The position numbers and the translations under genes were made by a program. A DNA stretch of 64,000 bases from Planctomycetota bacterium (lineage in GTDB: Bacteria; Planctomycetota; UBA8108; UBA1146; JAJFFE01), in contig JBFWWP010000020.1 in assembly GCA_050246115.1 (NCBI GenBank), positions 28,793-92,792 of the forward strand, given 5' to 3'. Below, piece after piece: positions 14,103-53,294 of the stretch. Every line of letters begins with the position of its first letter. The first letter of the stretch is position 1. The notes below the pieces were generated by a model. It saw nothing but the letters and a program-made list of their open reading frames with translations. It had not been told where the DNA came from and made no database searches.

Positions 14103-14557
14103 GATCGATTTCCTTCGAGTGTCGACCGAAACCAGCTCGGCGGGGCTGGTCGAAAGGCCGCGATCTTAGTAGGCGGGTCCGCGAGTTCACACCCATTTCG
14201 GGACTGGTGGGCGACCACGATCTCCCCCGTCCCCCGCGTGTCGCCGTTCGACGACGACCACGGCTCCGCCGCGGGCGCTCCCTACGGGGCCAACGCTCGT
14301 CGCGTACCGGAGCCTCCCGGCGACCGCAACGCGCGTAGCCGCCGGGGTGCCGGGGTCCGCCGCCACAAACTCTCTGGCCGCAGTCGCGTCGCGGTGAGAA
14401 GATCGGCGGCGCTGTCGTCCTCTCGGGAATCCGAGCCGTGGAACAGGGTCCACGACTCGTCGGTTGGACCGGTGGAGCCGTCCTTCGAAGCGCGCGAGCC
14501 GGGTCGCGATCGTCCCGAAAAAGAACCTCGTCCCGAGTGACCACCGGGGAGCGATCC

Positions 14558-21530: not shown

Positions 21531-23183
21531 TCAAGGGCAGAATGACGTCCGGCACGGAAGGTCCTCGCCGAGTGGAGCGGCGTCGCACTCGGGGAACGGC
21601 GGTTGGCCCGGGGGGCTTCCCATGAAGAACAGGTACTGCAGCAGACACACGGCGTCGGTCATGCTGACCGCGCCGTCGACGTCGAAGTCGTTCTGCGCCG
21701 CGCAAGGCGAGGTCTCCCCGCTGTACAGGTACTCGAGAATCGCCATGGCGTCGGCCATGTCCACCAGACCGCTCCGGTTCGCGTCGCCGCGCAGGTAGTG
21801 TCGCCGCGGGAGGTTCCCGGTGTGATAGAAACCTGCCTTATGGGCATCGTGGCCGATCATCCCCCACTCCACTCGTGGCACACCGGGGCCGGGGTTCTCG
21901 ACATCCCAAGCGTGCAGATTCCCCTGGTGACCGACGATGACCTCTAAGTCGTTGTCCCCATCGAGGTCCGCAATCGCGAGGGTACGCGGGGGGAATTGGG
22001 ACCATGACGGAAACACTTTGGGCCAACCGGGGAGTTCGTTCATGGACAGGTCGAGGAGATGGATTTGCTCCAGGTTGCCAGCGACGTTTGTACTCCAGGC
22101 GGCGATCTCGGCGAGGCCATCACCGTTGAAGTCAGCGACCGCGACGGCCATATAGAACGCGTACTCGTCTGTGGACGATGTCTGTGCCATGATGCCCACG
22201 CCCAGCTTCCACACCGTGATCTCGAACCCAGCCGAAACGACCTCGAGGCTACCGTCCGAGTCCACGTCGGCTATCGCCAACGGTACATTGGGCGACGCAT
22301 CTGCGAAATAGGAACCGGCAAATGCGGTCCCGTCGCGATTCATGACGAAGACGTGCGCGAAGTTTCCGACGATTTCGGAAGTCAGGTCTCCGTCCAAGTC
22401 CGCAATAGCAGGATTCGCAGCGATCTCCGGGCCCCCCAACCCCGGCGGAAACGCCGGCCACCCGGGTCGCGTGGTCCCATCGCCGTTCAACACAAACACC
22501 GGACCGGGAACCCAGGTCCCTTGATATCCCGAGAAGCTCACGACGATCTCATTCGTACCATCGAACTCTAAGTCACCGACCGCGACGCCCACGATTCCGT
22601 AGATCGGCGAGAGTTCCTCGAACACTCGCGGAAAGCCTGGGTGGTACTGACCATCGCCGCCGTAAACGAACAAGATTCCGTGGAGTTGAGAGCCGTCGCC
22701 AACGAGAATCTCCAAGTCGCCGTCGTTGTCGATGTCACCCAGACAAAGCTGACGGACGGCAGACCCGGGCGCGTCTACCTCCACGGGCCAGCCTGGCTTG
22801 AGCTGGCCATCACAGGTCACCGCGTAGACCGTCTTGTCCGTCGACCGGCGCCCCTCGAACACCACGTCGAGTTCGCCGTCACCGTCGATGTCGCCCACCA
22901 GGGGGGGAAGGTATGCTCCCCCTATCTCCTGCGGCGACGTGGGAAGAACGAACGGCCAGCCGGGCAGGACGTTACCTTGTCCATCGACCGCGACGATGTT
23001 GCCACCCCTCGAGACCACGATGTCGGGGAGTCCGTTGCCCGAGAGATCGGCAACCAACAGCTTGTTGAAGGGCCCGGAGGTGGTCGCTAGCGGGAATCCC
23101 GTCTGGGGATCCGACGCAAGGAGGCCGTGCACGGAGAGGCTGGCCGCTGAGACCGCGGCCAGCAGAGTCGCTCGAACGCTCAT
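21531..23183 (-). CDS. Secreted FG-GAP/VCBS-repeat beta-propeller protein with a C-terminal tandem dockerin-like module
   Basis: Signal peptide MSVRATLLAAVSAASLSVHG. Many GDxDGDGxxD/ADxDGD repeats (FG-GAP-like). The C-terminus RGDANRSGLVDMADAMAILEYLYSG...NDFDVDGAVSMTDAVCLLQYLFFMG is two dockerin type-I-like calcium loops plus helices, followed by a Cys-rich tail ending FCP. Confidence 0.7.
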   Translation of the reverse strand: MSVRATLLAAVSAASLSVHGLLASDPQTGFPLATTSGPFNKLLVADLSGNGLPDIVVSRGGNIVAVDGQGNVLPGWPFVLPTSPQEIGGAYLPPLVGDIDGDGELDVVFEGRRSTDKTVYAVTCDGQLKPGWPVEVDAPGSAVRQLCLGDIDNDGDLEILVGDGSQLHGILFVYGGDGQYHPGFPRVFEELSPIYGIVGVAVGDLEFDGTNEIVVSFSGYQGTWVPGPVFVLNGDGTTRPGWPAFPPGLGGPEIAANPAIADLDGDLTSEIVGNFAHVFVMNRDGTAFAGSYFADASPNVPLAIADVDSDGSLEVVSAGFEITVWKLGVGIMAQTSSTDEYAFYMAVAVADFNGDGLAEIAAWSTNVAGNLEQIHLLDLSMNELPGWPKVFPSWSQFPPRTLAIADLDGDNDLEVIVGHQGNLHAWDVENPGPGVPRVEWGMIGHDAHKAGFYHTGNLPRRHYLRGDANRSGLVDMADAMAILEYLYSGETSPCAAQNDFDVDGAVSMTDAVCLLQYLFFMGSPPGQPPFPECDAAPLGEDLPCRTSFCP

Positions 23184-38180: not shown

Positions 38181-40157
38181 CTATGGACACGCGTTGAACG
38201 AAGCACAATCCAAAGCGTCACCGGACGTCGGATCGACGCCACAGCCAGGGTGTGGCGGTGACGGCGGCACGGTCGTCGCGCCAAAGAGAGCACTCAGGAC
38301 GCAGATCGCGTCGGCGATGTTCAGCGTCCCGTCGTCGTTGCAATCGCAAGCATCCTCGCACGCAAGGGTGATCGGCATGCCCGACGGGAACAGGAAGCTC
38401 AGTAGGGAGATCGCGTCGGCGATGTTGAAGCTCGCGTCGGCGTTGCAGTTCCCGCGAACGAACTGTTGCGCTCCGGTGCCAGGCACGAACACCACGTCGA
38501 CGAGTTCCTCCATGAGCGTTCCGAAGTGCGGCGCCTGGATGTCCTTGAGCGGCGTGGTTCCGTCGCCCTCGAAGACCCAGCCCTTGTCGTCGACGATCGA
38601 CCGCCACGCGCGACGATGGATCAAGCGCGCACGGAACGTCACGTCTCCACCGACGGCGGGACCCGAGAAAGTGTAGTTCGTGGTATCGGTTGCGCCGGCG
38701 GGGATCCGCGTGTTGAAGCGCTCGGCGACGGCATCCGTGAACGGGATCGGGCCGTTGCCGCCGGCGTCCTCGATCAAGCGCCCGTAGATCTTACCCGGCA
38801 AGCCCGCCCAGTGGCCGGTCGCAGGATCTCCCACGCCGGCCTCGGGTCGAAGCACTTGCGAGGTCGCGTGGGCGAGGGCCTGACCATTGCCGACTTGGAT
38901 CGCTTCGACGATCAGGATCACGTTGCGCAGGCTGATCCCCGTGGGGACGTCGTGACCCGCCTTGTCATTCACGATACTGACCTGGACTTGGGCATCGGTT
39001 CCGACCACGTTCACCGACATCGTCATCGTCACCGCGTTCTCGAGGAACGTCGGCGTGGTGCCATGGATCTCGTGGGAGCGGATCTGACCGGCGATTCGCG
39101 GCACCGGGACGATGATACAGCCGTCGTTGGTTGCCGCCGGCATGTGGCAGTCCGCGCAGGTGGCGTAGGTGGGCGACATCGGGTTGCCGAAAGCGGATGC
39201 TTGCCACTCCGAGTAGGTCGTCTGCCCCGGGAAGCTGCCCGCCTCCGTGAAGTCACCGTCCTGGTCCGGGTCGCTGTTGTACTCATGGCATACGGAGCAG
39301 GTCTCGAACCGGATGTCGGGATTGTAGGACGGGTACATGGCGAGGGGATCGATGAAGTCCACGTCTCCGAGCGGACCGTACATCACTTGTTGGGTATTGA
39401 CCCCAGCCTCCACCGGACGGGTGACGATCACAGCGCCCGGGTAGAACCCGGTGGCCTTGGGCTCCAAGACATCCGCGGTCTTGTGACACATCTCGCACGA
39501 GACGCTCGCGAGGGAGTCGGTGGTCGGAGTGTTGATGTCCTGGAGTGCGGTAAAGGGAGCGTTCAGCCACTTCTGCGGCTGGTGGCACGACGCACACTCG
39601 CCCTCCGGGAAGGTCGCTGCGTGAATCGAGTCTTGCGTGTAGACGAAGCCGCCCATGCCGCCCGGCGTGCCGGTACCGTTGTACAAGTCATAGACCCATT
39701 GGTTGATCCCCGTGATGCTCATCGGGGTCGGGTTGGCCGAGTTGATATCGCCGTACTGAGCGAACTGATCGGCGTGGCAGAAGCCGCACTGAAGGTTCGC
39801 TCGCCACGTGTAGTTCGGGTCGTTGGCGAAGGTGTTGACGGGAGTCAGGTTGAAGTCCTGCGTGGCCGGTGTGGTCACGGTGTTCGGGACCAAGACCGGA
39901 GCTCCGTTGCTGTGGTAGTAACCGCGCTGCGCCGCCACCACCACGAGGTCCACACCCGACACGCTCAAGGTGTAGGCACCGGCGGCGTCTGTCGTGGTGC
40001 GCTGATCGGTTCCTTGGAGCGTCACGATGGCGCCCTGGATCGGCAACAAGGTGTTGGCGTCTCGCACGACACCGGACACCTGGCCCCATGAGGGGCTGGC
40101 CAGCATGGCGAGGCACGCGAGTGTGCCCAAAACGATCGAAGAATGGCGAACGAGCAT
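38181..40157 (-). CDS. Secreted pentaheme c-type cytochrome with an N-terminal CarbopepD_reg_2-like domain and a C-terminal tandem dockerin-like module
   Basis: Signal peptide. Five CxxCH motifs (CGFCH, CASCH, CEMCH, CSVCH, CADCH). C-terminus RGNCNADASFNIADAISLLSFLF...CDCNDDGTLNIADAICVLSALFG...PGCGVDPTSGDALDCASFNACP. Confidence 0.75.
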   Translation of the reverse strand: MLVRHSSIVLGTLACLAMLASPSWGQVSGVVRDANTLLPIQGAIVTLQGTDQRTTTDAAGAYTLSVSGVDLVVVAAQRGYYHSNGAPVLVPNTVTTPATQDFNLTPVNTFANDPNYTWRANLQCGFCHADQFAQYGDINSANPTPMSITGINQWVYDLYNGTGTPGGMGGFVYTQDSIHAATFPEGECASCHQPQKWLNAPFTALQDINTPTTDSLASVSCEMCHKTADVLEPKATGFYPGAVIVTRPVEAGVNTQQVMYGPLGDVDFIDPLAMYPSYNPDIRFETCSVCHEYNSDPDQDGDFTEAGSFPGQTTYSEWQASAFGNPMSPTYATCADCHMPAATNDGCIIVPVPRIAGQIRSHEIHGTTPTFLENAVTMTMSVNVVGTDAQVQVSIVNDKAGHDVPTGISLRNVILIVEAIQVGNGQALAHATSQVLRPEAGVGDPATGHWAGLPGKIYGRLIEDAGGNGPIPFTDAVAERFNTRIPAGATDTTNYTFSGPAVGGDVTFRARLIHRRAWRSIVDDKGWVFEGDGTTPLKDIQAPHFGTLMEELVDVVFVPGTGAQQFVRGNCNADASFNIADAISLLSFLFPSGMPITLACEDACDCNDDGTLNIADAICVLSALFGATTVPPSPPHPGCGVDPTSGDALDCASFNACP

Positions 40158-47714: not shown

Positions 47715-47862
47715 CCCAAGATGGAACCTGGCCCAAGGCCGTAGAGGAACGGTCGGCGACGGCCCCCCCGGGCTCCCGGCCCCCGAAGGCGGGGAGCCGG
47801 TTGGAGGCGTCGCGGATCCTGCGACCTCGCCGCCGCGATTCGCCGACCGGAGACCTTAGAGA

Positions 47863-48050
47863 CCTTAGGAGTCGCCCAAGAATAACTTCACCCTCTTGCT
47901 CGTCGCTTCGGGCCATCTTCGACCGATCCGAAAACCTCGTAATCCTCACCGGAACTAAGGCTACGCCTCCGGTTTCGAGCTTTCCGGATCGGCCGAATCT
48001 GACCCAAATCGACGGCAAGATGTCGAAGTTATCGTGGGCGACTCCTTAGG
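47863..48050 (+). mobile_element. MITE-like element, copy A (188 bp, about 27-bp terminal inverted repeats CCTTAGGAGTCGCCCAAGAATAACTTC / GAAGTTATCGTGGGCGACTCCTTAGG)
   Basis: Three near-identical copies in the window (this one, plus 50369-50557 and 51264-51451 in the opposite orientation). Termini are inverted repeats, and internal imperfect inverted repeats (gaccgatccgaaaacc...ggtttcgagctttccggatcggcc) make most of the element a long hairpin. Confidence 0.75.
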
Positions 48051-50085
48051 GCGCCTGACAGGCTCCCAACGAATCCAACGTGGGGTCGAGGCCGGCGCCG
48101 GGGAACGGATACGGCGGCGTGGCACCGTTCGTGAAGAGGTAACTGAGCGCGTAGATCGCGTCTCCGATGTTGACGCTGCTGTCGTCGTTCACGTCCGCCG
48201 CGTCGGGGCAGGTGGGCGCTGCACCGCCCGCGAACAGGAAGGTCAAGATCGCAATGGCGTCCGCGATGTCGATCGAGCCGGTGCGGTTCGCGTCTCCGCG
48301 CAGGAACTCGACCTGCCCAGGAGCGACGATCGTCACGCGCCCGTGCAGCGGGAACGGTGCGATGCTCGGACCCAACGACGGGGAGAAGATCGTGTTGAGC
48401 GGCGGCGAACCGAGACCATCGACGAAGCGGATCTCGGTCGTCGTCCCGACGGCCAAGCCGGGAACGACATCGTACTCCAGTCCGGCCAGCATTTGGTTTG
48501 CGCTCGGCGGGAACGTGCGGAAGTCGAACGGGGACGTGGTATCCAGAATGATCCCGGCCACGATGTTCGAATCGGCTCCGCTCCCGCCGTACTCGATGTC
48601 GACGAACTCGGGCGCGAGGGACTGGGTGATCGATCCCTGCAACGTGAGTTCGCTCAAGGCCAAAATGTTGGCGTCGTAGCCGATACCGACCTGGAACCCT
48701 TGGATCGGCTCGGGGTGCGAGGCGAAGATCGGGTGAATGACCCCCACCTCGCCGGCCACCAGCTGAATGCGCGGCAGTTTGATCGAGTTGGCCGGGATGC
48801 TTCCGCTCACATACGAAGCGCGGACTCGGTTACCGGTCCCGCCGGGTCCGGTGACCGTCAAGGTGACCGTGAACGGTCCCGGCTCGACGTACAAGTGCGT
48901 GGGTGCCAACTCGGTCGACGTGCTGCCGTCACCAAAGTCCCAGAGGACAGTGTCGAACACGCTGGCGATGCTGGGCGTAAAAGCGACGGAGAGCGGAAGC
49001 ATTCCGGAAGTCGGCGAACCCACGAAATCGACCGTTGGGGGCGGTACCTCGTTCATGTAGAAGACTGCCCCGAACGCCACGAACGCGACATGGATGTAGT
49101 CCAAGGAGTCCATACTGACGCTCGGCTGCGCCGCAACGCTCAGGAACGGGGTCAGGCTCGATACGGTCCAAACAGCGCCGGCATCCAACTCGTGGAGCCG
49201 AATCTGCCCCCCTTTTGCGAACACCAACGCGGCGTGCCCGCTCTGCCCGGCGGCAATCTGCGGGTTACCCGCGGGCCCAGCGTCGCGCAACTCGGGCGCG
49301 GTGTACACACCGGCTGCCGAGCGGCGAACGTAGCGAATCGCGGAGCCGTCGAGAAAGGCCACGTGCACCGAGCCGGCACTGTCCACGTCGAGGTCGAGCG
49401 TGCCCGTCCCCGCCGTCAGGGTGGCGATGGTTTCTTCGGCGCCGACCGTAGTCCCATCGAAGGTACGTCCGAACAGAGTTCCCGACCGCACATAGCCGAT
49501 GAACGAGACGCCACCCCCGAGAGCCGCCAACGCCGGGCTCGCGCCACTGCCGATCAGGACCGTGGCGCCACCGTTGCGAACTGCGAGGATCTCGGCCGGA
49601 GCGGCGCCGACTTGCTGCTCCCACACGATGTCGATCGCGCCCTGCTCATTCACTTGGACCACGGGGTTACGGTCATCGATGCCATCATTCGTCGTGATCG
49701 CCTGGGCCGAGCTGAATTGTCCACCGTTGTTGTTGCGGTAGAGCACTTCCAAACCCATGGCACCGGGTTCGACCGACAACTCGTCATACACCACGTGCAG
49801 CAGAAACGAAGATCCGACCGCGAGCCGACCACGACCGATGGGCTGAGGGGTCGCCGCGACCGGCAGCTGCTGGCCGAACCCGAAGAGAGTACTGGCGAGG
49901 AAAAGGTCGTCGCCGTCGCCGAACAGGATGGCGACGGTGTCGTTGGTACCGACCTGCAGGTCCGGCGCGGAGAAACCACCGCTCGAAGAGGCTTGAATGG
50001 GTTGGTTGAAACTCTGAGCCGACAACTCGGTCGCGCCGCACACCAACAACACGACGCACACCCACCGGCAGGAAATTCCCGACAT
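48046..50085 (-). CDS. Secreted multidomain protein with PKD, cohesin-like and C-terminal tandem dockerin-like domains
   Basis: Signal peptide MSGISCRWVCVVLLVCGATELSAQS. PKD domain (VLWDFGDGSTSTELAPTHLYVEPGPFTVTLTVTGPGG). Cohesin-like segment (IQLVAGEVGVIHPIFASHPEPIQGFQVGIGYDANILALSELTLQGS ... QMLAGLEYDVVPGLAVGTTTEIRFVDG). C-terminus RGDANRTGSIDIADAIAILTFLF...DVNDDSSVNIGDAIYALSYLF. The stop codon lies inside the MITE copy A inverted repeat. Confidence 0.7.
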   Translation of the reverse strand: MSGISCRWVCVVLLVCGATELSAQSFNQPIQASSSGGFSAPDLQVGTNDTVAILFGDGDDLFLASTLFGFGQQLPVAATPQPIGRGRLAVGSSFLLHVVYDELSVEPGAMGLEVLYRNNNGGQFSSAQAITTNDGIDDRNPVVQVNEQGAIDIVWEQQVGAAPAEILAVRNGGATVLIGSGASPALAALGGGVSFIGYVRSGTLFGRTFDGTTVGAEETIATLTAGTGTLDLDVDSAGSVHVAFLDGSAIRYVRRSAAGVYTAPELRDAGPAGNPQIAAGQSGHAALVFAKGGQIRLHELDAGAVWTVSSLTPFLSVAAQPSVSMDSLDYIHVAFVAFGAVFYMNEVPPPTVDFVGSPTSGMLPLSVAFTPSIASVFDTVLWDFGDGSTSTELAPTHLYVEPGPFTVTLTVTGPGGTGNRVRASYVSGSIPANSIKLPRIQLVAGEVGVIHPIFASHPEPIQGFQVGIGYDANILALSELTLQGSITQSLAPEFVDIEYGGSGADSNIVAGIILDTTSPFDFRTFPPSANQMLAGLEYDVVPGLAVGTTTEIRFVDGLGSPPLNTIFSPSLGPSIAPFPLHGRVTIVAPGQVEFLRGDANRTGSIDIADAIAILTFLFAGGAAPTCPDAADVNDDSSVNIGDAIYALSYLFTNGATPPYPFPGAGLDPTLDSLGACQAP

Positions 50086-50368
50086 GCGGCGCTCCCTCGC
50101 GCGAGTAGTACTCGCGAATAACCGCTGACCCAGAATTCAGAACGCGACGTTAAGAAAGCGAGCCGGAGGCCTACCCGTCCCAGGCGAACGGACGCCGCTC
50201 GGCGGCGCACGGAACCGGGGCCTCGATCCAGAACCAAACTGGCTCCGATGAAACCAGGAAAGCCAGAATTTCCAAGCTCAATCGGGCGCTCGTCGACCCT
50301 GAGTTGCGATAGATCAAGTCCGGGCGACGTAGAGGCCCGCGTTCCCGTGCTCAACTCGTCGAACGGGC

Positions 50369-50557
50369 CCTTAGGAGTCGCCCAAGAATGACTTCGACAT
50401 CTTGCCGTCGATTTGGGTCAGATTTGGCCGATCCGGAAAGCTCGAAACCGGAGGCGTAGCCTTAGTTCCGGTGAGGATTTCGAGGTTTTCGGATCGGTCG
50501 AAGATGGCCCGAAGCGACGAGCAAGAGGGTGAAGCTATTCTTGGGCGACTCCTTAGG
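50369..50557 (-). mobile_element. MITE-like element, copy B (189 bp; reverse orientation relative to copy A)
   Basis: Near-identical reverse complement of copy A, read directly. Followed by a partial extra agtcgccc. Confidence 0.75.
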
Positions 50558-50599
50558 AGTCGCCCGCCCTCGAGAGCCCTTGGGAAGAACCTAGGTCCT

Positions 50600-51181
50600 T
50601 CAGGTCCCGGTGCGCGCGCGGCCCAGCAACTCGGTGGTATCGGGGACCGAATCGGCGTGGTCTCCGCGCTCGAGGCGGCGGACGAGGATCGCCTCCGCTT
50701 CGCGGCTCGCTCCGCCTGCGACGAGCGCGCGCGCGAACTCGAGTTCGATCTCGGCGACGTTCCGGTCAGCGACTCCCCAGGCGCCCCGCGCGAGATCGTA
50801 GGCACGGCGCAACGATTCGGCGGCAGCGCCCCAGTCGCCGCGGACGAGGAGGCGTCGACCCAGTGAAGCCCTGGCAGCGACCTCGGACGCCACGTCGGGA
50901 AAGCCCTGGTGATCGAATCCGTGGACCCGAGCGCGCTCGAAGTCTGCGTCCGAGAGCGCGTCGAAGACCGGGTCCTCCGACTCCGCGAGTCCCTGCATCT
51001 GGGCGAAGCGCAGCTGCTCTTGCGCCGCCCGAAACTGGGCGCGCTCCGCTTCGACGTCGGCATTCCTACGAGCCGACGAGAGCCACGCGACCCCAGTCAA
51101 GGATGCAAGCAAACAGAAACCGCACACGAACAGAGCGATGAGAGCGCTCGCTGGCGGTCCAGTCCTGACATCGTCGGCCAC
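50600..51181 (-). CDS. Hypothetical membrane-anchored protein
   Basis: 193 aa with an N-terminal TM helix (LIALFVCGFCLLASLTGVAWL) then a helical/TPR-like region. Flanked on both sides by MITE copies B and C. Confidence 0.35.
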   Translation of the reverse strand: MADDVRTGPPASALIALFVCGFCLLASLTGVAWLSSARRNADVEAERAQFRAAQEQLRFAQMQGLAESEDPVFDALSDADFERARVHGFDHQGFPDVASEVAARASLGRRLLVRGDWGAAAESLRRAYDLARGAWGVADRNVAEIELEFARALVAGGASREAEAILVRRLERGDHADSVPDTTELLGRARTGT

Positions 51182-51263
51182 TGCCTCACCTCCTTCTCCC
51201 CTTGGGTTCCACGGAAACGGTCGTGAACGCCCCCCCGGCTCCGCCAGCGCCCGAGTGCGAAGC

Positions 51264-51451
51264 TCTTAGGAGTCGCCCAAGAATGACTTCGACATCTTGC
51301 CGTCGATTTGGGTCAGATTCGGCCGATCCGGAAAGCTCGGAACCGGAGGCGTAGCCTTAGTTCCGGTGAGGATTTCGAGGTTTTCGGATCGGTCGAAGAT
51401 GGCCCGAAGCGACGAGCAAGAGGGTGAAGTTATTCTTGGGCGACTCCTTAG
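51264..51451 (-). mobile_element. MITE-like element, copy C (188 bp; same orientation as copy B)
   Basis: Near-identical to copy B, read directly. Its end is 1 nt from the stop codon of the downstream lipoprotein gene. Confidence 0.75.
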
Positions 51452-51452
51452 A

Positions 51453-52958
51453 TCAAGGCCCCCTGGCGGGCCCTGCCTCGGGCAACAGCGGAAAGTCGAA
51501 GTCGAAGAGCATCGTGTCGCGCGACGGCTCCGGGCCATCCGGGCCGTCGATGCCGTAAGTGGCGCGCAATCGCAGCGAGAAACTACCGGTCACCTGTAGA
51601 ACCGTCGTTCCGTCTTCGCCGACGATGAGTTCGAAGAACGCTGTCGCGCTCAGCGGAACGGGCGTATCCCGCAGGACGAATTGCCCGTCGAGCGTAGCAC
51701 GGGCTTGCACGCCGAACTGCAGCGGGTCGTTCGTGAACGTTCCCTCGAACCAGGCCCGCGGGAAGCGTTCGGCGTCGAGCAGCGTCGGACCGCGGATATG
51801 CTGATCCAGATCGGGGTGCCCCATGGTGACCGACGAGACCGGCACGTCGAAGCGACACCAGCCGGTTCGCAGCTCGGGCGACCGAAACTCGAGCGTGCCC
51901 GACGCCCCCTTGGCGGCCCCGGAGTAATGATCGAGCGGCGGCGCAAAACGAAACAGTACCCGCGGGTCATCATTCCTCTCCGCCTCCACCGTTCGCCATA
52001 CCGCCCCAACCGTGGAGTCTGGATCGGGCGTCGCTGCTCCCGAAACCGGGCGGGCCAGCGCGGGTAGCGGCAAACCGATCTCTTCCCAAGTCTTCAGCGG
52101 GACGTCGGCAGGGACGGGGTCGAAGGCGTCGCCGATGTCCGAGTTCGCGATCTGCCGCACCAGTTCCTCTTCGAGCAGCCGCGCGGCACTCGCGAGCACC
52201 CGCTCCCGCTCTTCCCAGCGCCCCCGCAGCGGATCGCCGCGATTGCTGAACACCGGCGTGTGGCAGTGGAACTGAGAGAACAGCTCGGTCGTGACGAACA
52301 GCTCTCCTTCGGGAGAACGATACGGATGGAAATCCATGTAGAACGCTCGGTCGGAGCGGCCGAGACGCGCGGGCTCGGAGCGACGAAAGCGGCTGAAGGC
52401 GCCCTCGATCGCGCGACGTGCAGACTGAGCGAACTCGAAGCGGACATCGTCGCCGCTCCCGGCGACCGAGGTCGCCCCCGTGAGCGGCGTGATCTTGATC
52501 GGCACCACGACCTGCATGCGACCGACTCGCCATACGGGTGCGTCGGGTAGTTCGAGAAACTGGTCGCTTTGGGGCACCCGCCGGAAGGTGCGTACGAAGT
52601 TCTCGAGGCGGTCGACGTCGAGGTAGCGGCCTTGATAGACCGCTCGACCACGGGCGTTGACGAACGCGATCAGCGGTGTGAGCGCGACCTCGGCCGGAGC
52701 GCCCTCGGTGACCGAGATCACGCGCATAGGGATCCCCGCGTAGGCCGCGAAGAGCTCGATCTCCAAGAGGTCGTTCGCCTCGAAGCGCCGCGCCAGATCC
52801 GAGCGCTGCGGCTGAACGAACACGACGAGGGTCTCCGGCGGGACGGCCTCGGCCGCACCCGCGCGCCCCGCTCCATCGTCGTCGCGGGTCTCCCGTTGAC
52901 AACCCCATACCAACAGCAGCAACCCCAGGGCCACCGCTCGGTTCGTCTTCGCGCGCAA
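51453..52958 (-). CDS. Hypothetical lipoprotein with a C-terminal YceI-like domain
   Basis: Proposed TTG start (complement of 52956-52958) preceded by GAGGAGG-N5, giving MRAKTNRAVALGLLLLVWGC (lipobox). C-terminal region TLEFRSPELRTGW...ATLDGQFVLRDTPVPLSATAFFEL is YceI-like. The track start at 53141 adds an Arg-rich unconserved extension. Confidence 0.55.
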   Translation of the reverse strand: MRAKTNRAVALGLLLLVWGCQRETRDDDGAGRAGAAEAVPPETLVVFVQPQRSDLARRFEANDLLEIELFAAYAGIPMRVISVTEGAPAEVALTPLIAFVNARGRAVYQGRYLDVDRLENFVRTFRRVPQSDQFLELPDAPVWRVGRMQVVVPIKITPLTGATSVAGSGDDVRFEFAQSARRAIEGAFSRFRRSEPARLGRSDRAFYMDFHPYRSPEGELFVTTELFSQFHCHTPVFSNRGDPLRGRWEERERVLASAARLLEEELVRQIANSDIGDAFDPVPADVPLKTWEEIGLPLPALARPVSGAATPDPDSTVGAVWRTVEAERNDDPRVLFRFAPPLDHYSGAAKGASGTLEFRSPELRTGWCRFDVPVSSVTMGHPDLDQHIRGPTLLDAERFPRAWFEGTFTNDPLQFGVQARATLDGQFVLRDTPVPLSATAFFELIVGEDGTTVLQVTGSFSLRLRATYGIDGPDGPEPSRDTMLFDFDFPLLPEAGPARGP

Positions 52959-53294
52959 CGGTTCCTCCTCGCCTCTCCGTGATCGCGCTCGGCTATCGCG
53001 CGCCACCGGCAGGGTAGCCCAGGTTCGGCGGCGGCACCACGGGTCGCGCGGGATCGGTCGGTCGGTTACATTGAGTCGGGTCGGGGGCCCGCACGATCCC
53101 CGCGAGTCCGCATTGCGGCCCTCGGCGACAGCGGAAACCACCCGCCACGCCCCCAGGTGAAACGGCGTTCGTGCGGCACTCGGTTCCGGGCGACGGAACG
53201 GCGCGTCGCCGCTGCTTCGCGGGAAGTCGTCCTCCCTGGCATTCGCGCCGGGCGCTCGTGATCGAAGGATTCAGGCCAAGTTCCAGGAGTCGGC

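Follow-up and report, generated by a model that had tools for sequence, protein, structure and literature searches.

The Correia elements of Neisseria, the ERIC/IRU repeats of enterobacteria and the RUP elements of pneumococci are 100 to 200 bp long, carry terminal inverted repeats (TIRs), are nearly palindromic, and lie between genes, beside coding sequences with which they are often co-transcribed. Correia and RUP elements have been tied to duplications of TA or of other bases and to transposases of families other than the one considered here. REP/BIME repeats, which are moved by RAYT transposases of the IS200/IS605-like kind, are extragenic palindromes that recur downstream of gene ends; the REP units are 20 to 40 nt long, lack TIRs of the sort described below, and make no duplication. 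Here we analyze a stretch of 64,000 nt from a Planctomycetota bacterium (GenBank assembly GCA_050246115.1, contig JBFWWP010000020.1, positions 28,793 to 92,792), referred to as the window, in which a repeat of 178 to 179 nt is present in three copies. In all probability this repeat is a genuine miniature inverted-repeat transposable element (MITE), inserted three times independently and moved in trans by a DDE transposase of the ISAzo13 family. In size, TIRs, near-palindromic structure and position beside genes it resembles Correia, ERIC and RUP. However, it has no sequence relationship to any of them, and it differs in having a C-TNA-G target, a target-site duplication (TSD) of 3 bp and ISAzo13-type ends. 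With the REPs it shares a location after gene ends, but as a unit of 179 nt with a TIR, a 3-bp TSD and the ends of a DDE-type insertion sequence (IS) it does not fall among these 20- to 40-nt palindromes without a TSD.

Results

Three copies of one short element with inverted ends

A repeat search of the window, together with alignment of the repeats, recovered one element three times, with copies 2 and 3 as direct repeats and copy 1 inverted (Table 1). A first annotation of the window made from its letters alone (hereafter, the original prediction) had placed three copies at these positions with more than 90% identity, and this was borne out: the pairwise identity of the 178/179-nt cores is 96.6 to 98.3%. 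Homology breaks sharply at GGAGTC/GACTCC, beyond which the flanks of the three copies are unrelated and do not align. The ends form an inverted repeat that is perfect over 16 bases and matches at 21 of 22 positions. The 27-bp TIR first proposed was correct as to the inverted ends but too long, the duplicated host bases in CCTTAGG...CCTTAGG having been counted with it. Five of the six element ends carry the terminal 16-mer, GGAGTCGCCCAAGAAT, without a mismatch, and the remaining one, the end of copy 1 beside the gene for a PKD-domain protein, is degenerate (GGAGTCGCCCACGATA, 3 mismatches). With up to 3 mismatches allowed, GGAGTCGCCCAAGAAT matches the window seven times against 0.68 expected, and six of these seven matches are the element ends. 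Sensitive blastn of the window detected no fourth copy, not even a degenerate one, and no additional copy appeared when the host contig was extended by 3.8 kb to the left and 2.4 kb to the right.

On the plus strand, every copy reads C-TTA-(GGAGTC...GACTCC)-TTA-G, with TTA directly repeated on both sides. The statement that no clear TSD is visible must accordingly be corrected, since a 3-bp direct repeat of TTA inside C-TNA-G is found at each copy. The pentamers flanking a copy are direct repeats and not the reverse complements, CTTAG...CTAAG, expected of a part of the inverted repeat. Read in the orientation of the element, the triplets are TAA/TAA at copy 1 and TTA/TTA at copies 2 and 3. Since an inverted copy carries the same plus-strand triplet, the triplet is a property of the site, not of the element.

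The element has a GC content of 56%, compared with 65% for the host, and is without coding capacity. Its sole open reading frames (ORFs) are generated by the repeat and run into the flanks. Those common to the copies are real open frames, yet by-products of repeat identity, and a concatenated six-frame peptide query of the element found no homologue among 5.8 billion proteins; the original view of these identical ORFs as spurious thus stands. At copies 2 and 3 (50371-50392 and 51266-51287), TAGGAG-N10-ATG sets a Shine-Dalgarno-like AGGAG before an ATG that opens a 23-codon frame into the element. The related ISs described below have no such ATG, and the arrangement is probably a coincidence.

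Over its full length the element is about 75% self-complementary, and its two halves are strongly alike (z = 16 against shuffled controls). As DNA it folds into a single hairpin from end to end at -71 kcal/mol (z = -13.6), and as RNA of the same sense as the neighboring genes the three copies reach -95.6 to -117.5 kcal/mol, whichever way the element is oriented. Both folds agree with the earlier description of the repeat as largely hairpin-forming. Nor does it belong to a known family of noncoding RNA, which had been named as the observation that would speak against a mobile element: a search of Rfam 15 gave no match at the gathering score in the whole window and none on the elements at E <= 1. 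A scan for promoters and terminators detected neither a sigma-70-like promoter nor a T-tract terminator joined to the full hairpin.

ISAzo13-family insertion sequences share the ends of the element

A scan for TNA followed by GGAGTCGCCCAAGAAT covered 185,579 species-representative genomes and gave at least 14 loci, in a list from which the absence of the host lineage carries no meaning. At nine of the 14 loci among the matches listed (L001, L002, L004, L006, L007, and L011-L014), the same IS end stands behind CTTA or CTAA; the hosts are metagenome-assembled genomes (MAGs) of Candidatus Marinacidobacterales or other Acidobacteria. The tenth of the matches listed (L005) is a solo end behind CTGA, and the remaining four are isolated stretches of 16 to 19 nt in low-GC genomes that look like chance. 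Full copies of the IS are present at L006 (3737-5653) and L007 (5711-7627). They are 1917 bp long, 99.9% identical to each other, and bounded by the inverted ends GGAGTCGCCCAAGAAT and GGAGTCGCACAAAAAT, and the L006 copy is flanked by TTA on both sides. Their ORFs match PF07592, a DDE domain of the ISAzo13 type, with 238 bits. On the NCBIfam equivalog NF033519 (ISAzo13 family transposase), for which the cut-off is 200, the intact 307-aa relative P0121 reaches 362 bits, and the ORF upstream of it covers the N-terminal part of the same model. A second IS species was found on ten JGI contigs (L025-L034). It has 73% amino acid identity to the first in the transposase and the same 16-mer at the transposase-distal end, with TTA or TAA at 20 of its 20 ends. 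On these contigs the triplets on the two sides of the IS differ in 4 of 8 contexts, probably owing to chimeric assembly through a multi-copy IS, and only the invariant TWA flanks were used.

The MITE and these ISs (the 1917-bp IS and the L025-L034 species) are identical in the outermost 16 nt and share TTA/TAA flanks in a C...G context. A 3-bp duplication is reported for both ISAzo13 and its eukaryotic relative Zator (PMC10045372), and the relationship between the two is also noted in PMC5718144. In contrast to the ISs, the MITE is 179 bp long and gene-less, with an unrelated interior. Both of its ends are of the GCCCAAGAAT type; in the ISs, the orfA end reads GC(A/C)CAAAAAT. Its host is a member of the Planctomycetota, while the IS with the same end at L006/L007 resides in Acidobacteriota. 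At the transposase-distal end, 16/16 and then 23/26 positions match between MITE and IS, and the likeness is confined to the outer 26 to 32 nt. Because similarity ends there, the ISs identified are relatives of the mobilizer and not the parent. The ends and the TSD together point to ISAzo13 as the mobilizing family, which the original prediction had left unnamed. It had also proposed a search for an autonomous IS with matching inverted repeats, and such ISs, with an identical 16-nt end, do exist in other organisms, although the window itself has no ISAzo13 transposase.

Two candidates were dropped. A reading of the MITE interior as a relic of the transposase C terminus failed because beyond nt 16 there is no similarity above shuffled controls, and the shared "MSK" is translated TIR. 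In metagenomes, the end pattern GGAGTCGCCCAAGAATRRCTTC occurs at one locus in two samples (L021/L022), as a 25-nt match with no TNA flank and no further similarity, which we treat as chance or a solo relic rather than a copy of the element. A TIR scan of viral contigs found nothing.

Several features of the ISs themselves were recorded. The IS is cut off 1373, 1042, 83, 78, 250, and 1003 nt from its transposase-distal end in L001, L002, L004, L011, L012, and L014, respectively, and decayed copies are common in these Acidobacteriota genomes. In this ISAzo13 clade (L024 186-1888; L025 1710-3424; L007 5726-7531), orfA of 259 to 293 aa and orfB of 307 aa overlap by one base and jointly span the single-protein NCBIfam model. 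A run of eight A residues lies about 30 nt upstream of their junction, where a programmed frameshift is possible; orfB is additionally split in the L006/L007 copies. Among the JGI contigs, the flanks of one IS are recombined from contig to contig (L026 and L030 share the left flank and differ in the right), and in L025, L026, L029, and L033 the IS is followed immediately by an IS110-family transposase gene.

Target choice

A 3-bp TSD inside CTNAG and a 5-bp TSD of CTNAG yield identical sequence, so the MITEs by themselves do not distinguish between these models. The second IS species favors the 3-bp duplication, because in L031 and L034 the two sides agree in TAA but the base that follows is C instead of G. 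Departures from C/G in the outer bases are also seen in L028 and L030. The C...G around TNA would then be a preference and not a requirement.

CTWAG occurs 17 times in the window, where about 72 occurrences are expected from base composition. Nine of the 17 are in or at the copies, each copy contributing two junctions and the tip of its hairpin, and a tenth (47855) directly adjoins copy 1. With TAA on one strand and TAG on the other, the motif is avoided in the coding DNA of a 65% GC genome, and its rarity and placement would send the element to gene ends and spacers. Away from the MITE region it is present only at 14165, 21944, 22568, 23718, 23969, 24327, and 55727; five of these sites lie within 2.4 kb around 22 to 24 kb and may mark a compositionally different stretch. 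Just before the copy 1 junction, CCTTAGGAG, stands the near-duplicate CCTTAGAGA (47855-47863), which may be the footprint of a past excision or a repeat native to the site.

The orphan GGAGTCGCCC next to copy 2 is probably what remains of an earlier copy, at whose junction copy 2 inserted. The pre-insertion site would then have been ...GGGCGACTCC-TAA-G, that is, the junction of an older element end. Two loci of the genome scan parallel this arrangement: at L006 the IS is seated exactly at the TTA junction of a MITE-like element of about 157 bp, and at L004 an IS end abuts a 40-bp element of two TIRs. Tandem insertions of this kind are expected, since an inserted end followed by TNA-G recreates C-TNA-G. 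The ~157-bp element (L006 3574-3733, in a Marinacidobacterales MAG) has the ends GGGTTCGCGCAAAAATAAGTTCGC... and ...GAAGTTATTCTTGCGCGGGCCC, and its right subterminal 13 nt, GAAGTTATTCTTG, are those of the window MITE. The 40-bp mini element (L004 1246-1297) consists of two inverted ends only, GGGTCCGCCCAAGAAT-CGATAG-ATTTTTGCGCGGGCCC, between TTA triplets, and the IS end that abuts it is truncated.

Host genes and related genomes

Four minus-strand genes stand in a row at this locus, encoding a YceI-domain protein, a 193-aa protein, a PKD protein with a weak dockerin match, and an aldehyde dehydrogenase, and each of the three spacers between them holds one copy of the element (Table 1). All three copies are situated 0 to 47 nt downstream of the stop codons of same-strand genes. 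The original prediction had described a neighboring gene as cohesin/dockerin; a weak dockerin match and a PKD domain are present, but no cohesin was seen. Judging from its junctions, copy 1 entered the TAA stop codon of the PKD gene, and the TSD rebuilt the stop, leaving the protein end unchanged. Indeed, the C terminus of the PKD protein ends where those of its orthologues end (...CQAP versus ...PCAP). A 50-nt coding repeat (...GATCGCGTCGGCGATGTT...) recurs at 21637-21686, 38293-38342, 38398-38447, and 48143-48192, in several genes. Among these places is the dockerin-like C terminus of the PKD protein, so that several proteins of the window would carry a module of this calcium-binding type.

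Table 1. Positions in the window of the element copies, their flanking triplets and the adjacent genes
Feature	Position	Strand	Remark
MITE copy 1 core	47868-48045	-	178 nt; opposite in orientation to copies 2 and 3
MITE copy 2 core	50374-50552	+	179 nt; 16-nt ends both perfect
MITE copy 3 core	51269-51447	+	179 nt; 16-nt ends both perfect
TSD TTA, copy 1, distal side	47865-47867	.	sequence
TSD TTA, copy 1, PKD side	48046-48048	.	on the minus strand, TAA stop of the PKD/dockerin gene
TSD TTA, copy 2, left	50371-50373	.	sequence
TSD TTA, copy 2, right	50553-50555	.	sequence
TSD TTA, copy 3, left	51266-51268	.	sequence
TSD TTA, copy 3, right	51448-51450	.	sequence; 2 nt past the TGA stop of the YceI-domain gene
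Orphan GGAGTCGCCC	50556-50565	+	first 10 nt of an element end, abutting copy 2
PKD protein gene, weak dockerin match	48046-50085	-	copy 1 starts at the stop codon; copy 2 is 284 nt upstream of the start
193-aa protein gene, no Pfam match	50600-51181	-	copy 2 lies past the TGA stop by 44 nt (TSD) or 47 nt (core)
YceI-domain protein gene	51453-53141	-	copy 3 begins 2 nt past the TGA stop; start codon uncertain, NCBI calls a 501-aa product

NCBI annotates the product of the PKD gene as a protein of a Planctomycetota MAG. The same locus is found in GCA_050250155.1 (contig JBFWPE010000051.1), where it is 99.93% identical and all three copies are unchanged. Logan short-read contigs from SRR27751815 and SRR27751816 (L016, L017) extend 30 nt into copy 2 and 48 nt into copy 1 before they stop, which is what a repeat would be expected to cause. 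The original prediction had also proposed comparing the insertion sites in relatives. Two relatives have the gene order GcpE / YceI / ~194-aa gene / PKD in common with this locus: L018/L019, whose PKD protein is 73% identical, and L020, where that protein is 52% identical and the aldehyde dehydrogenase gene follows PKD. No trace of the element was found in any of the three orthologous spacers of L018/L019 and L020, and the insertions are thus lineage-specific. The L020 spacer orthologous to the copy 2 site contains about three tandem 16-nt units, GGGTCCTTAGGCGTCT, each with the CCTTAGG target motif (L020 5470-5570).

Discussion

The repeats, ends and flanks described above support the original core reading of a noncoding, non-autonomous MITE mobilized in trans. 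In the model that we favor, an ISAzo13-family DDE transposase would recognize the ends GGAGTCGCCCAAGAAT and move the gene-less 179-bp core, with insertion at T-N-A within C-TNA-G and duplication of those three bases. CTWAG, with stop codons on both strands, being very rare in a 65% GC genome, usable sites would mostly be gene ends and spacers, which would explain why all three copies follow stop codons so closely. Copy 1 would have hit a TAA stop that the duplication rebuilt, and each copy would place a hairpin of roughly -100 kcal/mol in the 3' part of the transcript of the upstream gene.

A number of observations weigh against this model. The known copies number just three and all fall within a single 3.6-kb stretch of the ~70 kb examined (the window plus ~6 kb of extensions). 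The central 22-mer of the element had no match in JGI metagenomes or viral contigs, and blastn against plasmids did not find the element. From nt 17 on, the similarity between MITE and IS is no better than in shuffled controls, and the IS comes from another phylum. Moreover, tblastn of the window with the IS proteins gave a best E of 0.2 and no ISAzo13 transposase, and none was present in the ~6 kb of additional host flanks. The IS at L007 has the flanks TTA/TTT, and the central base of the TSD shows just two states, which makes an argument from covariation weak on its own (1 in 8). Finally, the only relatives shown to lack the element have protein identities of 73% and 52%, and a near-identical strain with an exact empty site was not found. 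With regard to the host, PF07592 is named after Rhodopirellula, and Planctomycetota thus commonly carry this family.

Other explanations must account for the same features. The copies may derive from a MITE yet be immobile now, retained as stabilizers of mRNA 3' ends or as barriers to read-through. This proposal, which is compatible with a MITE origin, would fit the position of every copy just past the stop of a same-strand, co-directional gene, the strong transcript-sense RNA fold in either orientation, the lack of a transposase nearby in the window, and the degenerate end of copy 1. We nevertheless consider it unlikely: the full hairpin has no subsequent T-tract, relatives keep the same gene string without the element, target rarity alone explains the placement at gene ends, and an identity of 97 to 98% indicates recent spread and not long retention. 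Far less probable is a structured noncoding RNA gene family or a set of cis-regulatory hairpins that are not mobile DNA. The fold is very stable and statistically exceptional, as such a family would have it, but the lack of an Rfam match at either threshold, the inversion of one copy relative to the flanking genes, the perfect TIRs with direct 3-bp duplications, the identity of the ends to those of a transposase-encoding IS, and the absence of the element from syntenic relatives make this scarcely credible.

The choice of family and the mode of copying can be questioned as well. Some IS5 and PIF/Harbinger-like families also duplicate TNA, and a 3-bp TNA duplication in a CTNAG context would suit a MITE of one of these, with the match to ISAzo13 ends a coincidence. 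We hold this to be very improbable, for the exact 16-mer with a TNA flank bounds ISAzo13-encoding ISs at nine of the 14 genome matches listed and on ten metagenome contigs (19 independent contigs), and none of these ends comes with an IS5-type gene. Local segmental duplication or gene conversion, in place of transposition, would account for the confinement of the known copies to 3.6 kb. It has next to no probability, given that similarity ends exactly at GGAGTC/GACTCC with flanks that cannot be aligned, that one copy is inverted, and that each copy has its own TSD.

A MITE moved by an ISAzo13-type transposase may be active in this lineage at present. The original prediction of recent local activity is plausible in view of the identity among the copies and their clustering, three in 3.6 kb and none in the other ~66 kb read, which fits local hopping. 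It falls short of proof, since the rare CTWAG sites also shape the clustering, which could reflect the location of suitable sites. We suggest, tentatively and with considerable doubt, that this is the first MITE family tied to ISAzo13-type transposases, one steered to gene ends by C-TWA-G, including TAA stops that can be regenerated, and spread across phyla. The same 16-nt end in Planctomycetota and Acidobacteriota, together with an element GC below that of the host, would point to such cross-phylum spread, and the literature searched on ISAzo13 contained no report of a MITE for the family.

The main value of the finding is for annotation and for the cataloguing of mobile DNA. The element is of an ordinary kind and implies no new mechanism; to the specialist in mobile DNA it offers a modestly useful record and no surprise. 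The repeat produces spurious ORFs of 90 to 230 aa on both strands and breaks short-read assemblies, and masking it would improve the annotation of these MAGs. ISAzo13 is among the least studied IS families, for which a MITE with clear ends, a 3-bp TSD and a CTNAG target is a testable substrate. The insertion into a stop codon that the TSD rebuilt illustrates a way for a transposon to establish itself in a compact, GC-rich genome while leaving genes undamaged.

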